Both the position numbers and the translations under genes were made by a program. A stretch of DNA of 36,551 nucleotides from a virus (taxonomy: Duplodnaviria; Caudoviricetes): IMG/VR virus record IMGVR_UViG_3300012953_000006, positions 1 through 36,551 of that record; one strand, given 5' to 3'. Positions 19,571 through 33,962 of this stretch are shown in pieces (position 1 is the first letter of the stretch; each line of letters opens with the position of its first letter). The notes below the pieces were generated by a model. It was not told the origin of the DNA, searched no databases, and saw only the letters and a list, made by a program, of their open reading frames with translations.

Positions 19571-19591
19571 TAATTAAGTGCCACTATTAGG
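19571..19591 (+). promoter_or_regulatory. Candidate phage-RNAP promoter (phiOR-like position)
   Basis: TAATTAAGTGCCACTATTAGG; similar to 27087-27106 and 33901-33919. Confidence 0.55.
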
Positions 19592-19687: not shown

Positions 19688-19954
19688 ATGGATAAACCTA
19701 AAATAATATATCTCAAAGCTCTCTTTAAGAAACATAAGCCAGAGAATAAGCTAGAGAAAATAATAAAAGATTTTGTAGTACACGCAGATTTACAAGAAGT
19801 AAGCAAAGAGAAACTTAAAGTTCCACAAAAAGACAGGTCTAAGGTGGCTAGAGAGTTTATATTAGATAATGTTGAGGACTTCTTGGCTTACGCAGTAGAC
19901 TATTCGTTATACGATAAGTTTTTCTATGACGAAAATTTAGAAGAAAAAATCTGA
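19688..19954 (+). CDS. Hypothetical protein (last late gene)
   Basis: 88-aa ORF. Confidence 0.6.
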   Translation: MDKPKIIYLKALFKKHKPENKLEKIIKDFVVHADLQEVSKEKLKVPQKDRSKVAREFILDNVEDFLAYAVDYSLYDKFFYDENLEEKI

Positions 19955-21812: not shown

Positions 21813-22286
21813 ATGGAAAATAATAAGTTAAAAACTAAACCTTTAACTAAAGTCATTATGGCTATAGCAGAGGTGTCGTGCAAAGTATGGTACTATTGCA
21901 GATGTAAGTTATGGAGACAGATAAATGATTTTGATTATTATGTGTTTGACTTACGTTGCCAATATCCAAATCAGATAGTTTACAAACACGAAGTATCTGA
22001 CCTACCATTCTTCAACAGAACCATAAATAATGACGATGAGTATGAAAGGACTTCGTCAATAAAAATAGGTGACTGTTGTATCCAATATACTTTCAACAAG
22101 ATTAGACGTTCAGGTCTTATAGAAACAACTGAAGTACTTCCGTTGTTTGAACATATAGACCCATACAAAAATCAGTTGGAGAATATAATATCACAGACAA
22201 AAATCTCTCATAATGAACCTAAGAAGTTAAAGGTAATAAAGCTAAATAGAAAGGAGAAGAATGTCGTACAGTTGCACAGTAAATAA
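21813..22286 (+). CDS. Hypothetical early protein
   Basis: 157-aa ORF with AGGAG RBS. Confidence 0.7.
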   Translation: MENNKLKTKPLTKVIMAIAEVSCKVWYYCRCKLWRQINDFDYYVFDLRCQYPNQIVYKHEVSDLPFFNRTINNDDEYERTSSIKIGDCCIQYTFNKIRRSGLIETTEVLPLFEHIDPYKNQLENIISQTKISHNEPKKLKVIKLNRKEKNVVQLHSK

Positions 22287-22702: not shown

Positions 22703-24010
22703 ATGAACGCTAAACTAAAAGCACTTATAGGCGATAGACTTCCGAAAGGAATTTCTCTTAAAAGAGATAAGTCTTTGTTTATAAAAAAGTCTAAGAAGTA
22801 TAGACACAATGGTGAGGAAAAGGAGAAGACTTTAACTCACACAATTCATTTGGGTATAACTTCTGATATGACTGACGCAAAAGCAAGAGAGCAGTTTGAA
22901 ACTCAATTAGCTTCTGCAACAACAGTCAGAAACCAAATGGTAGAGAAGTTAGCTTCAAGAAAATTCCTTGAAACTGACACTGCAAAAACTGTAGGAGAGG
23001 GTTCGCTTCAGCAGGTATTCGATATGTTAAATGATTTGGGTACTTGGAAAGGCAAACACCAACAGTTGGTGCAACAATACTTTCAGGACACTATGAATTT
23101 TTTCGCTGAGAGGGAGAATAAAAAACCTATGGTGAAAGATTTACATACCAGTGAATGGACTTTATTTGAGTTCAAAGAATGGTGTGCTAAAGCAGTAGTG
23201 AATAGAAAGATGAATATGTATAAGACTGTTAATACAAATTCAGTCAATAAAAGACTGGGTGTGTGGAGACAGATTACTGCATATGCTATCAAGAAAAGAC
23301 TGTTTAGTCTTTCTGATACACTAGACCCAAGTAAGAAAAACTTTGGTATTGAAGATGAGAAAAGAAACCAAAGTAAACCTAAACCACCTCTATCAATAGA
23401 GCAGGAAGAAAGTCTTTTTGCAGTTATCAGAGAATATGATGATAGCTTTTGGGAAGATTGTTTAACTGTAGCTATAGATACTGGTGTTCGACACGATGGT
23501 GAATTGAATAGAATTTCTACTGATTGGATTGACTTCGGTAAGAAAACTCTACAATTCAAAAGACCTAAGACGCAAACTTGGTCTACTATTCCATTAACTA
23601 AAAGAGCATTTGATGTCTTTAAAAGACGTAGAGAGATTGCTCTTAAAGATGAGAACAACAGGTTCTTTCCTGTAAGTAAAAGTTCTATCAGACACACTTG
23701 GAATAAGTATCGTGAGAGAGCAGGGTTAAGTGTTGATTACACACCTTATTGCACAAGACATACTTTCATTACAAGATTAGTTGAAGCAGGAGTTTCACCT
23801 AAAGCAGTAATGGATTTAGCAGGTCACGGTGCAATCGAAACAACACTTACATTCTATACTCATTCAACAAATGAGATATTAGAAACTGCTATTTCTAGTT
23901 TAGAGGAATACAAAGATAAGAAGAAAGTAGCTAATATGAAACCAGTAAATGGTGCAGTTGGTGGTTCTTCTTTAATAGGTCATAACTCTAGAAAGGTGTT
24001 GAAAAAATAA
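22703..24010 (+). CDS. int: Tyrosine integrase
   Basis: TGVR (R), RPKT (K), YCTRH (HxxR variant) and LAGH...TLTFYTH (H, Y). Confidence 0.93.
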   Translation: MNAKLKALIGDRLPKGISLKRDKSLFIKKSKKYRHNGEEKEKTLTHTIHLGITSDMTDAKAREQFETQLASATTVRNQMVEKLASRKFLETDTAKTVGEGSLQQVFDMLNDLGTWKGKHQQLVQQYFQDTMNFFAERENKKPMVKDLHTSEWTLFEFKEWCAKAVVNRKMNMYKTVNTNSVNKRLGVWRQITAYAIKKRLFSLSDTLDPSKKNFGIEDEKRNQSKPKPPLSIEQEESLFAVIREYDDSFWEDCLTVAIDTGVRHDGELNRISTDWIDFGKKTLQFKRPKTQTWSTIPLTKRAFDVFKRRREIALKDENNRFFPVSKSSIRHTWNKYRERAGLSVDYTPYCTRHTFITRLVEAGVSPKAVMDLAGHGAIETTLTFYTHSTNEILETAISSLEEYKDKKKVANMKPVNGAVGGSSLIGHNSRKVLKK

Positions 24011-24026
24011 AGATGTCATCTATAAG
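23999..24026 (+). promoter_or_regulatory. Candidate sigma70 promoter for the tRNA
   Basis: TTGAAA-N16-TATAAG ending 22 nt upstream of the tRNA. Confidence 0.4.
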
Positions 24027-24048
24027 TTCTACATATCAATTGCGTAAT

Positions 24049-24133
24049 GGGGCGATGGTGGAACTGGTAGACACGCCAGTCTTAGGAACTGGTCGAGCAA
24101 TCGGTGAAGGTTCGAGTCCTTTTCGCCCTACCA
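24049..24133 (+). tRNA. trnL: tRNA-Leu (anticodon TAG)
   Basis: Acceptor stem GGGGCGA/TCGCCCT plus ACCA; anticodon arm CCAGT-CTTAGGA-ACTGG; long variable arm; T-loop TTCGAGT. Confidence 0.95.
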
Positions 24134-24137
24134 AAAC

Positions 24138-24364
24138 TGACTACGTTAGTGGATACGTTATCAGTCTTTTGGATACGCTAGTAGGGAAAGGAGTGTTGGT
24201 AGTTGTAGGTTTAAGTCCATACGTTGGTCTTAGGAACTACCGACACTTTTTCTCTTATGCACAAGTGACGAATATAACTGGTATCACTTGTGTTTTTTTA
24301 AAATATCAACCTTTGCACCTGTGCGTTAGTCACGTATCCAAACGTATCAAAACTAACGTATCCA
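24138..24364. other. Putative attP: core GTCTTAGGAACT (24227-24238) with arm-type repeats
   Basis: Core equals the tRNA-Leu anticodon loop region; TGGATACGTTA-like sites x3 on the left and their reverse complement x3 on the right. Confidence 0.75.
24259..24299 (+). terminator. Possible intrinsic terminator (arms double as operator-like sites)
   Basis: GCACAAGTGA / TCACTTGTGT inverted repeat followed by a T run. Confidence 0.4.
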
Positions 24365-24403
24365 TACACACGTGCAACAAAAATAAGAGGAAATGTTCAC
24401 ATT

Positions 24404-25372
24404 ATGTCCGACATATTAAATAAACAACAACAAGACTTACAGGAACAACTACAGGAATTAGTCAAAGTAGGAGTAGGTGGTAAGTTTAAAGACAACAATG
24501 ACTACACTAAAAGAATACAAGAAGAACTGGAGTTTGAAGAAGCTATGCTTCAGGGTGGTATTGATAGGTTTAAGAAGACAGTCAATGACGCTATTATAAA
24601 AGGTCAAGAGAGTACTACACTTCACGGATTGGTATTACAGCAGAAGTACATCACTAAATTATCCTTATTAATTAATGGCGATATATCACTTATGGAAAAA
24701 GGTGGTGCAGGTAATAGATTAACTGCATTAAAACTAATCTGTCAGTGTCTTCCCAAAGACGCATTTGGCAGTGGGTTATATCTTAAAAAGCAACACTCAA
24801 TCTGGGATACTTGTTCTTTGATTATCCTAAAGAATGTAATCGATGGTATCTCAAATGAAACCACAATGAATAAACTAGCTATCAAGATAGGCACAGGTCT
24901 AATGATGGAAGCTAGAATTACAATGTTCAAAGACCAGAACAAAGAAAAGTTTAATCAAGTTAGTAAAAGATTAGCTGAGAAAAACATACCTCAAAATGAG
25001 AACCGATATAGGTACAAGCAAAAGGTTTGGACTTATATGATGAATAAGAATGACTTGGTTTTTAATGACTGGGGTAAAGAGGGTAGACTTCACTTGGGTG
25101 TGAAGATGATTGAGTACTTGGAAAAACTAGGACTTATCAAGCACCAGAACCGAAAGCTAAATAAATTTAAGACAGTCACTTATGTTGAAGCTACTAGAAA
25201 AATCATAGATGAGATTAGGAATTTCAATATTAAGAATGAAGCACTACAACCAAAGTACTTGCCAATGCTAATGCCACCAAGAAGATGGGAATATAATCCA
25301 TTTGTTGGGGGATACTATGGAAGAAAACACAACTACGAAAATAAACCAGAAGATATTAAGGAGATAAAATAA
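24404..25372 (+). CDS. T7-like RNA polymerase, N-terminal subunit
   Basis: ELEFEEAMLQGGIDRF and PMLMPPRRW...GGYY correspond to T7 RNAP residues up to ~288. Confidence 0.9.
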   Translation: MSDILNKQQQDLQEQLQELVKVGVGGKFKDNNDYTKRIQEELEFEEAMLQGGIDRFKKTVNDAIIKGQESTTLHGLVLQQKYITKLSLLINGDISLMEKGGAGNRLTALKLICQCLPKDAFGSGLYLKKQHSIWDTCSLIILKNVIDGISNETTMNKLAIKIGTGLMMEARITMFKDQNKEKFNQVSKRLAEKNIPQNENRYRYKQKVWTYMMNKNDLVFNDWGKEGRLHLGVKMIEYLEKLGLIKHQNRKLNKFKTVTYVEATRKIIDEIRNFNIKNEALQPKYLPMLMPPRRWEYNPFVGGYYGRKHNYENKPEDIKEIK

Positions 25373-27069
25373 TGCACTTTAATTTAGTCAAAGCGTCAAA
25401 CCGTAGATACCTTGAAGAACTAAAGAACAGAGGACACGAAATGAAACCTGTATATGACGCAGTTAATATTATGCAGGAAACAGAATGGGTAATTAATAAA
25501 CCTGTATATGAGGTTATTTCTAAACTCATAGAGAGTGATGATGGTATGGGTAATTTACCTACTAATCCTCAGACTATTCCTCTACCAATTAAAGAAGTAG
25601 ATGTAGAGAATAATGATAAGACATCACCAACCTATAAAGAAAACTTAGTTAAATGGAAAAGACAGGCAAGTCTTGTTTATAAAGATAGAGCCAAGTCTAA
25701 ATCTAAATACATTCAAGTAAGACAAATACTTACTGAAGCACAATTACTTTTAGATAGGTCTTTCTTCTATCCATATCAGCTAGACTTTCGTGGTCGTATA
25801 TATCCAAAACCTGCTATGTTATCACCACAAGGTGCTGACTATTCAAGAGCATTAATTAAATTTAAATATGGAAAACAAATGAAAGAGAATAATTCATTTG
25901 ATGATTTCGCAATTGCAGGTGCAGGTTTATATGGTGAAGTTGATAAAGAGGATATTCAAACTAGATTAGATTGGGTCAAAGACAGACTAGATTTATTTGT
26001 TAGTTATGCAAAAGAACCATTAATAAATACTGATTGGTCTAAAGCAGATAAACCTTTCTGTTTTTTAGCTTGGTGTTTTGAACTTAAAGACTTTGCTGAA
26101 ACAGGATATGACGCAACATTTATAACAACATTACCAATACAATCTGATTGTAGTAATTCTGGTTTACAGCATTACTCAGCTATGATGAGAGACCCAGTTG
26201 GTGGTAAAGCTACTAATCTAATACCATCTAATAAACCTGAAGATGTTTATAGAATAGTTGCAGAAAAAGTTATTGAAAAATTAAAAACTAAAACAGACCC
26301 AATGGCTAAGTTGTGGTTAGATTATGGAGTAGATAGAAAACTCTGTAAGAAACCTGTGATGTGTTTACCTTATTCTTTAACTCAATATTCTTGCAGACAA
26401 TATCTACAAGACCACGTTGAGAAAGAAAAAATAGAAAAGAGTAGACCTCATTACTTTGGTGAAGATTTATTCAAAGCTACTAATTGGCTAACACCAATAG
26501 TATGGGAAAGTATCAATGAAGTTATTGTTGGTGCAAAAGAAATAATGGGTTTTCTAAAAACGGTATCAAGACTTGTTGCTTCTGAAAACTTACCTGTCAC
26601 TTGGACAACACCTAAACCTTTAAACTTTCCAGTACAAATGATGTGCTACAAAAAAGAAAGTAAAAGAGTAAAGACAAAGATGGGTGATAGTATAATAAAA
26701 TTATCTATTCAATCTGATACAGACGAAATAGATAAAAGAAAAACTGCACAATCTATATGTCCTAATTTAATTCATAGTTTGGACGCTAGTGTATTACAGT
26801 TAGCAGTAATCAAAGCTAAAGAAAAAGGTGTCACTAATTTTAGTTTGATACACGATAGCTTTGGTTGTGTTGCACCTGATGTAGCAAAACTTTCTGAAGC
26901 AATACGTGAAGCGTTCTGTGAAGTGTATGAACAAGATGTACTCACAAACTGGGCGATGGAAATGAAGCAAATGTTATCAGATAAAAATGCTAAGAAGTTT
27001 CCTCATATACCAGTAAGAGGTGAGTTGGATTTATCTTTAGTTAAACAATCAATATTTTTTTGTGTTTAG
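25372..27069 (+). CDS. T7-like RNA polymerase, catalytic subunit
   Basis: DFRGRIY, motif A DCSNSGLQH, motif B RKLCKKPVMCLPY, motif C IHDSFG; own AAGGAG RBS. Confidence 0.95.
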   Translation: MHFNLVKASNRRYLEELKNRGHEMKPVYDAVNIMQETEWVINKPVYEVISKLIESDDGMGNLPTNPQTIPLPIKEVDVENNDKTSPTYKENLVKWKRQASLVYKDRAKSKSKYIQVRQILTEAQLLLDRSFFYPYQLDFRGRIYPKPAMLSPQGADYSRALIKFKYGKQMKENNSFDDFAIAGAGLYGEVDKEDIQTRLDWVKDRLDLFVSYAKEPLINTDWSKADKPFCFLAWCFELKDFAETGYDATFITTLPIQSDCSNSGLQHYSAMMRDPVGGKATNLIPSNKPEDVYRIVAEKVIEKLKTKTDPMAKLWLDYGVDRKLCKKPVMCLPYSLTQYSCRQYLQDHVEKEKIEKSRPHYFGEDLFKATNWLTPIVWESINEVIVGAKEIMGFLKTVSRLVASENLPVTWTTPKPLNFPVQMMCYKKESKRVKTKMGDSIIKLSIQSDTDEIDKRKTAQSICPNLIHSLDASVLQLAVIKAKEKGVTNFSLIHDSFGCVAPDVAKLSEAIREAFCEVYEQDVLTNWAMEMKQMLSDKNAKKFPHIPVRGELDLSLVKQSIFFCV

Positions 27070-27086
27070 ACCTTTGCACCTGTGCT

Positions 27087-27106
27087 TAATAAAGTTCCAC
27101 TTATGG
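27087..27106 (+). promoter_or_regulatory. Candidate phage-RNAP promoter (start of replication genes)
   Basis: TAATAAAGTTCCACTTATGG; shared motif and expected position. Confidence 0.5.
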
Positions 27107-33658: not shown

Positions 33659-33962
33659 TGGTGATAGAGATAAAACTCACGGTAATAAAATAGTAAACCA
33701 CGAGAATATCTCTAGACTTTGGAGTGCATATTTACAAAACAAAACCAAACTAAATATTATTCTTTCACCTGAAGATGTGGCACAGCTAATGTCTTTATTG
33801 AAGATTGCTAGAACACAAGCAGGTGAACATAACATTGATGATTATGTAGACGCAGTTGGCTATCAAGCAATTGCAGGAGAAATAGCAAGTAAGAGGTCTG
33901 AATTAAGTTCCTCTTTAGGAGTATCTAATGAACGAAAATCCAAAAATACCAACAATAAGTGA
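33615..33962 (+). CDS. DUF6378-like (all-alpha, nucleotide-metabolism-associated) protein
   Basis: RLWSAYL...PEDVAQLMSLLKIAR...DDYVDAVGY; GGAG RBS before 33615. Confidence 0.7.
   Translation: MNTTDILQKTEKLVNGDRDKTHGNKIVNHENISRLWSAYLQNKTKLNIILSPEDVAQLMSLLKIARTQAGEHNIDDYVDAVGYQAIAGEIASKRSELSSSLGVSNERKSKNTNNK
33901..33919 (+). promoter_or_regulatory. Candidate phage-RNAP promoter (start of late genes)
   Basis: AATTAAGTTCCTCTTTAGG; phi6.5-like position. Confidence 0.55.

Follow-up and report, generated by a model that had tools for sequence, protein, structure and literature searches.

A T7-type RNA polymerase naturally split into two genes in a temperate pelagiphage of the group III type

The RNA polymerase (RNAP) of phage T7 is a single chain of 883 amino acids (aa). 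A natural heterodimeric member of the T7-like family is the RNAPII of coliphage N4 (Schitoviridae), composed of gp15 (269 aa) and gp16 (404 aa). The gp15 subunit holds the N-terminus, the thumb and the DX2GR motif, and gp16 holds motifs A-C (PMC4496689, in part; a source cited "in part" is cited for its available portion). The N4 enzyme has a truncated N-terminal domain, and needs cofactors of the gp2/Drc SSB type (SSB, a protein that binds single-stranded DNA) (PMC4496689 and PMC7145618, both in part). Among the phages of SAR11 bacteria (pelagiphages), Chen et al. 2019 (PMC6811365 / 10.1101/672428, in part) reported that all group III RNAP genes save that of HTVC011P are in two fragments, and that the interruption is not recent; the available text states fragmentation and age, without a breakpoint, a subunit model or a test. 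Here we analyzed the two-part RNAP of the virus record IMGVR_UViG_3300012953_000006 (Duplodnaviria; Caudoviricetes), and "the window" denotes the whole stretch of 36,551 nucleotides (nt). The split has been in print since 2019, and the window is a further case of the known fragmented RNAP of group III.

The fragmented gene is shared by the records of HTVC025P, HTVC041P, Gjalp and MedDCM-OCT-S30-C28, and also by uv-Fonsiphage-EPL (Chen et al. 2019, in part). These group III phages have in common with the window the lineage, the breakpoint, the start motif of the catalytic part and the gene order integrase, tRNA-Leu, RNAP and SSB; they differ only in the junction, which has overlaps of 20-32 nt or a 497-nt gap, versus a 1-nt overlap in the window. 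Our searches, largely of open-access literature, returned Chen et al. 2019 as the sole mention of the split, and no biochemical study. The available portions of 10.1101/410191, PMC8163748 and PMC12361551 do not mention it, PMC12753301 deals with HTVC022P and HTVC027P, which are outside group III, and PMC4246154 was rejected as a report of this split since it concerns a split terminase. The marine Autographiviridae AG-10.1 and AG-14 also have two RNAP-annotated genes per genome, but these are a full RNAP of ~800 aa and an extra one of ~650 aa (PMC12361551, in part), whereas the window has two non-overlapping halves of one enzyme. The features of the window that bear on the split are as follows.

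24404..25372, + strand: gene of the RNAP N-terminal subunit (322 aa; Pfam RPOL_N, PF14700, E 4e-11)
25244..25315, + strand: aa 281-304 of the N subunit, its conserved C-terminal arm (with P283, equivalent to T7 P266); predicted tether to the catalytic subunit
25319..25369, + strand: variable tail of the N subunit (aa 306-322), overlapping the Shine-Dalgarno (SD) sequence of part 2
25358..25363, + strand: SD sequence AAGGAG for the catalytic subunit, 8 nt 5′ of its ATG
25370..25374, + strand: TAATG stop/start overlap, likely a site of translational coupling; same geometry in 18 of 60 split loci
25372..25392, + strand: start motif MH[YF]N[LF][VIF]K of the catalytic subunit, found in 70 of 70 split loci; residues 1-6 lie in the predicted interface
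25372..27069, + strand: gene of the RNAP catalytic subunit (565 aa; Pfam RNA_pol, PF00940, E 6e-93)
25783..25797, + strand: DFRGR (DX2GR) motif, aa 138-142 of the second subunit
26647..26739, + strand: specificity-loop region, ~aa 426-456 of the catalytic subunit, aligned to T7 739-770

The RNAP of the window is not encoded as one polypeptide; its genes are two open reading frames (ORFs), which together carry a T7-type N-terminal domain and the right-hand fold, as judged from the Pfam, T7 and fold matches. The N subunit matched T7 RNAP in sequence (E 1e-7), and its predicted fold also matched T7 RNAP (E 2e-5; predicted local distance difference test, pLDDT, of the model, 62), as did the predicted fold of the catalytic subunit (TMq 0.76). 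T7 residue numbers were taken from PDB alignments and counted along the alignment. Y305 of part 1 is aligned to T7 W287, and P283 to the T7 hinge proline P266, whereas the LVK of part 2 is aligned, via a fused distant relative and counting from W287, to T7 L296-V297-R298. Hence, part 2 starts at about T7 residue 292, and the break falls at about 288-292, in agreement with the sequence-only reading of the two ORFs of 322 and 565 aa. The N subunit corresponds to T7 up to ~288 (promoter-binding domain, subdomain H and C-linker hinge), and the catalytic subunit to ~292-883 (thumb, palm, fingers and specificity loop, the latter being T7 residues 739-772; PMC4299498). Since the T7 C-linker spans residues 251-296 and its hinge residues 258-266 (Tang et al., PMC3961267, in part), the cut falls beyond the hinge, at the linker's distal end.

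The DX2GR motif and motifs A, B and C, with the catalytic Asp, Lys and Tyr, are all present in part 2. Residues D138, R140, R142, D259, R322, K326, Y334, H494, D495 and S496 were invariant in the 28 relatives aligned; G141 was a serine in 10 of the 28 (DFRSR for DFRGR). Apart from this position the catalytic motifs are intact, as had been read from the sequence. The division is unlike that of N4 RNAPII, also as proposed, because DX2GR lies in gp15 there and in the second subunit here, and because the N-terminal domain of the window, in its 322-aa subunit, is of full length. The N4 chains were not matched by sequence and were absent among the fold matches listed, and hence the comparison with N4 relies on the published descriptions. 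T7 RNAP has been engineered with a seam behind residue 301 or 302, ~10 residues away from where the natural cut falls. These enzymes were active, with mean signals of 793 and 530 relative to 2488 for a split at 179, i.e., ~1/3 or ~1/5 of the latter (PMC4299498, in part). Unlike these constructs (Segall-Shapiro et al. 2014), the natural split has its own SD sequence and an evolved start motif.

In order to decide whether the split is real, independent contigs were inspected. Contigs from runs X2, X5 and X7 (three of four runs, from three studies, and none of them the run flagged as a possible source of the window) bridged the junction with more than 31 nt on each side and no gaps, and no indel restoring a single ORF was present at 25350-25380. 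We conclude that the split is real, and is neither a chance event nor an assembly error.

The distribution of the split was surveyed with patterns placed inside the catalytic part, which can also catch fused forms. Eighty-seven loci were examined, 26 of them without the junction, which left 61 (L073 is a duplicate of L003, and L122 of L006); the gene was split at the same place in 60 of the 61. The sister clade around fosmid KM23-C739 (Chosvirus, 40% identity) was split at this same place in 16 of 16 covered loci, from a survey of 22 loci in which three lacked the junction and three were distant loci outside the clade; these three (33% identity) were fused. The loci from genome collections were all split (13 of 13). 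When pooled and de-duplicated, 71 of 72 distinct junction sequences were split, a tally that requires the start motif and so excludes distant fused forms. Phages that are in culture and propagate also have the split gene (HTVC025P, HTVC041P and Gjalp). Among the best 120 homologues of part 2, 119 were 555-569 aa long and none was full-length (lengths up to 989 were searched). Of the best 150 clusters at 50% identity, 140 were at least 740 aa; the split is therefore limited to a small branch within a family whose enzymes are fused. That relatives share the breakpoint bears out what the sequence-only reading had left to be checked, and its view that the junction is evolved rather than erroneous agrees with the conserved breakpoint, the gapless contigs and the purifying selection described below. 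As judged by these comparisons, the junction is evolved, old, selected and lineage-wide.

A core of GGAG, GAGG or AGGA precedes the start of part 2 in all 70 split loci checked; in the window it is the AAGGAG that had been noted 8 nt before an ATG overlapping the TAA. The start motif reads M/V-H-[YF]-N-[LF]-[VIF]-K across the split loci, its first residue being M or V, and H-x-N was found at that position in none of 101 fused representatives; by this comparison H-x-N is specific to split forms. In contrast with this fixed start signal, the relationship between the two frames is free. The split loci that do not have the geometry of the window showed 10 others (11 in all), from a 32-nt overlap to a 497-nt gap, with relative frame offsets of 0, 1 and 2 in 4, 31 and 25 of the 60 loci, respectively; most junctions were overlaps or 1-nt gaps. 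A fixed SD and start signal with a free frame is predicted by separate translation and not by recoding, and thus the two parts are likely translated separately rather than fused by a frameshift. The long gaps hold other ORFs: in HTVC025P, 497 nt with two annotated ORFs separate the halves (L002:3267-3754), neither of them with a convincing Pfam match, and L048, L049, L056 and L084 have a 131-nt gap with small inserted ORFs. HTVC025P apparently also has a third, unannotated short ORF with a hydrophobic stretch before part 2.

The sequence-only reading had also drawn attention to a charged tail on part 1. The tail does exceed the T7 linker in length, by ~12-13 residues. A functional tail is unsupported, since length and sequence vary: it extends 14-35 residues from GGY across relatives, is poorly conserved past N310, and its final K-E is simply what the codons within the part-2 SD sequence encode.

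HTVC011P (KC465900.1, L005), the only fused record, has a single RNAP ORF of 880 aa in GenBank. Another frame of this record retains the ATG together with nine initial residues of the start motif, and the fused product lacks the LVK strand. A search of contigs for the 28 bases that lead up to the difference in the record itself gave 14 contigs with the HTVC011P junction, all 14 of them split (L087-L100). Five of the 14, at 99% identity with the record across ~900 nt, have an additional A; the missing A (locus ~2480-2520) removes the part-1 stop in HTVC011P. The fused ORF, described as the unsplit exception by Chen et al. 2019 (in part), is probably a one-base deletion error in a widely used reference sequence, although a genuine re-fusion in the isolate may have occurred.

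Pairwise Nei-Gojobori ratios of nonsynonymous to synonymous substitutions (dN/dS) gave medians of 0.22 (N gene) and 0.20 (C gene). They were taken over those 260 of the 1431 pairs from 54 distinct loci that had a dS of 0.05-1.5; the pairs are not independent. The window's own three pairs gave 0.05-0.12 (N) and 0.09-0.15 (C). By this measure both halves are under purifying selection, and the N half is not decaying. The identities of the two halves correlated across the 54 loci (Spearman 0.90), as shared ancestry would also predict. Quick maximum likelihood (ML) trees were built under LG+G4, with the Shimodaira-Hasegawa-like approximate likelihood-ratio test (SH-aLRT) as the only support measure. 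In the N-part tree the two split clades were sisters (SH-aLRT 97), with the fused P0122 outside. The window fell in one clade with HTVC025P (support 100). P0122 (811 aa) is the closest fused relative of both split clades, with 44-46% identity to their catalytic parts.

The two subunits were also modeled as a complex. The model scored 0.72 versus 0.03 for the best control. Among solved complexes 116 of 157 attained this mark, and among mismatched pairs 2 of 215; the runs agreed in at least 70% of contacts, with a partner pLDDT of 60-63. Confident contacts joined residues 281-304 of the N subunit to residues 1-6, 17-39, 118-135 and 146-150 of the catalytic subunit. Conservation within the N subunit is highest in this arm, with L281, P283, M288, P291, P292, R293, W295 and P299-G306 invariant. 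The modeling, which the sequence-only reading had suggested, is compatible with association; it shows compatibility and not binding, because the halves of a split gene can pass through their likeness to the solved single-chain T7 RNAP.

We consider it probable that the enzyme is a heterodimer of separately translated parts, likely T7-like, with the N subunit retained by the predicted clamp of its arm and with a single origin of the split likely. The two gene products would assemble into one enzyme that acts like single-chain T7 RNAP. The arm 281-304 would replace the lost peptide bond and keep the N subunit clamped to the catalytic subunit, and the hinge upstream of the arm would act as in T7, so that the N subunit would rotate and refold at promoter escape without being released. 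Promoter specificity would be shared, with the specificity loop in subunit 2 and the upstream and melting elements in subunit 1. The SD sequence and the TAATG overlap would couple translation and yield roughly equal amounts of both subunits. The split probably arose once, at a tolerant surface seam, and was then probably fixed as the new start motif (MH-x-N) took over the interface; adaptation is not required for this. In T7, subdomain H of the N-terminal domain joins the RNA channel in elongation, and is therefore still needed after initiation (PMC3961267, in part). Assembly, activity and the retention of subunit 1 in elongation are likely on the basis of sequence and model.

Several observations weigh against this reading. 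The free C-part tree gave a three-way fork of the two split clades and the fused P0122 (99 for the three), on which the split label requires two changes; a C-part tree constrained to join the split clades was not rejected (log-likelihood 9.3 higher; p-AU 0.58), and one origin for the two clades is likely from these trees. The nearest engineered seam, at 301/302, lies beyond the LVR strand and the natural cut before it, so that this seam is not an exact T7 counterpart of the natural one. T7 phage whose RNAP was engineered into two pieces, at another position than here, is viable but below wild-type fitness (PMC6009699, in part), and hence neutrality cannot be assumed for the split. In the complex model only the arm region is confidently placed, the position of the rest of subunit 1 being uncertain (pLDDT 62). 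The RNA contigs from four metatranscriptome runs were all short and none crossed the junction; the one contig from within the N gene, 237 nt long, may have come from DNA.

An N-terminal domain acting as a separable, sigma-like subunit that eases promoter release, as the sequence-only reading had proposed, would make subunit 1 a dissociable initiation factor, released or exchanged after promoter escape. A cut that coincides with the N-terminal domain's border (C-linker 251-296; PMC3961267, in part), a confident interface limited to an arm of ~24 residues and genes that can be separated by 131-497 nt would all suit such a cycle. We nevertheless regard release as distinctly improbable, because the N part retains the hinge proline and the C part holds the specificity loop: the main promoter-specificity element belongs to subunit 2, while the invariant proline and the arm stay with subunit 1, and the arm is predicted to dock on part 2. 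The place of T7 subdomain H in the elongation channel and the tracking of the identities of the two halves, with the reservation given above, also argue against it, as does the finding of one N gene beside one C gene at each locus examined (the search did not extend to extra N genes elsewhere in the genomes). The engineered "sigma fragment" of T7 RNAP is the C-terminal piece with the specificity loop, not the N-terminal domain (PMC4299498). An obligate heterodimer could, on the other hand, have been selected as an AND-gate on transcription, for instance in silencing the prophage. The temperate lifestyle of group III (integrase and tRNA-Leu att site), an intact split pair beside host-type genes in a SAR11 single-cell assembly, operator-like palindromes on both sides of the pair, and 2 of 71 distinct split junctions that are in frame, with stop and start 3-9 nt apart, yet unfused, speak for regulated assembly. 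It is quite unlikely all the same: the overlaps or 1-nt gaps at most junctions suggest coupled, equal synthesis, neither of the two long gaps inspected showed a promoter-like motif, and fused temperate relatives (HTVC019P group) also integrate.

The split might also be merely apparent, with a programmed frameshift or readthrough yielding one fused polypeptide. The part-2 frame of the window is open for four codons 5′ of its ATG, an A-run precedes the stop, and an XXXYYYZ heptamer is present in the shared zone of 10 of 71 distinct junctions. The shift needed, however, varies by lineage (+1 in 42, -1 in 27 and 0 in 2 of 71 junctions), the 131- and 497-nt gaps contain stops and other ORFs, the SD sequence and start codon are kept in 70 of 70 loci, and comparison of the window, L002 and L048 with Rfam gave neither an intron nor a recoding element. 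We reject a family-wide frameshift, readthrough or intron because of the junction geometry and the Rfam result, and we hold a fused polypeptide to be very improbable as the explanation of the split; a minor fused product may be made in the window phage. Finally, the single 880-aa ORF of the HTVC011P record would fit a sequencing or assembly artefact, or a decaying gene. This has hardly any probability, given the gapless independent contigs, the 14 of 14 split contigs with the HTVC011P junction (five at 99% identity with one more A) and the purifying selection on both halves. The preferred reading is thus a heterodimer of separately translated parts.

Outside the pair, candidate regulatory and integration sites were found.

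27089..27106, + strand: candidate phage-RNAP promoter before the SSB gene (motif match)
19573-19590: second candidate promoter, zero mismatches
33902-33919 and 19815-19832: weaker candidate promoters
24314..24325, + strand: palindromic operator-like site upstream of the N gene
24365-24376, + strand: palindromic operator-like site upstream of the N gene
27075-27086, + strand: palindromic operator-like site just before the candidate promoter
24049..24133, + strand: tRNA-Leu(TAG) with attP-like core, between the integrase gene (22703-24010) and RNAP; a hallmark of group III (PMC6811365, in part)
24079-24089 (in the phage tRNA-Leu) and 24227-24237 (~95 nt downstream of the tRNA): two copies of the 11-nt integration core, likely attP

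Of 36 distinct regions lying downstream of the catalytic gene, 34 contained the promoter-like motif, versus 0.03 expected per region from coding DNA, the motif having been chosen after viewing those same 36 regions. Genome-wide, at three mismatches, it gave seven matches, with no excess over chance (13 of 100 shuffles were as high). At the corresponding place, the motif of the KM23-C739 clade is another one and is more T7-like. The conserved downstream motif is consistent with a working enzyme, its role as a promoter being putative. Operator-like palindromes occurred in 20 of 36 upstream and 24 of 36 downstream regions, compared with 0.006 per 130 nt in coding DNA, and were kept as palindromes with a sequence that varies among relatives. 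A phage repressor acting at both places is a possibility. The 15-nt repeat at 24310 and 27071 was rejected as a phage promoter; it reads better as an operator, because it has just two occurrences and a palindromic look, and the motif next to it is the stronger promoter candidate.

A terminal repeat of 123 nt in the window suggests that the whole genome was assembled as a circle. Its T7-like gene set comprises capsid, tube, nozzle, tail fibre, terminase, portal, integrase, RNAP, SSB, endonuclease I, amidase, primase-helicase, DNA polymerase and exonuclease genes, and the integrase and tRNA-Leu(TAG) genes lie upstream of RNAP as in group III. The closest public matches of both RNAP halves were the Pelagibacter phages HTVC041P, HTVC025P, Gjalp, Eyrgjafa and HTVC011P and fosmid S30-C28 (61-71% identity in both halves; the next matches were at most 40%), and 12 of the 13 genome-collection matches were Pelagibacteraceae or Pelagibacter assemblies. 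In one of the loci, L125 from a SAR11 single-cell assembly, the intact split pair adjoins host-type genes. The 11-nt core is the sequence reported for HTVC025P integration (PMC6811365, in part). On its gene content and matches, the window belongs to a SAR11 phage that is temperate and of the HTVC019Pvirus group III type, with a genome that looks complete. A 136-aa ORF at 24013-24423 was taken as spurious, as it overlies the tRNA and has no Pfam match. A 157-aa early protein (21813-22286) showed a weak Hfq-like match below the cutoff (E 5e-4). In L014 and L016 the N-subunit gene directly follows an integrase-like C-terminus, without the tRNA/operator region of other group III loci.

What these results add to the published split is the breakpoint in T7 numbering, the geometric evidence for separate translation, the split-specific start motif, the extension to the Chosvirus clade, the likely HTVC011P error, and a tether model that favors T7-like behavior over a sigma cycle. 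Annotation and hidden Markov model (HMM) surveys that expect one RNAP of ~800 aa may miscount this clade. It is a speculative and rather unlikely idea that the N subunit serves as an exchangeable module for promoter opening under separate control. If true, the lineage would have converted the single-chain T7 enzyme into a genuine polymerase of two components, with their assembly gating the choice between lysis and lysogeny in SAR11 prophages. Nature would then have reached a multi-subunit T7-type enzyme by a second route, after N4 RNAPII, and synthetic biology would have a natural split polymerase at hand. The naturally evolved interface could serve split-polymerase sensors. The enzyme itself most likely acts in the manner of T7 RNAP. 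The lineage provides a second, independent cut site in this family, and the question is directly testable because cultured phages and a close fused relative exist for comparison. Since the cut parts the refolding N-terminal domain from the catalytic body past the hinge, these phages would test whether a covalent linkage is needed in promoter escape.

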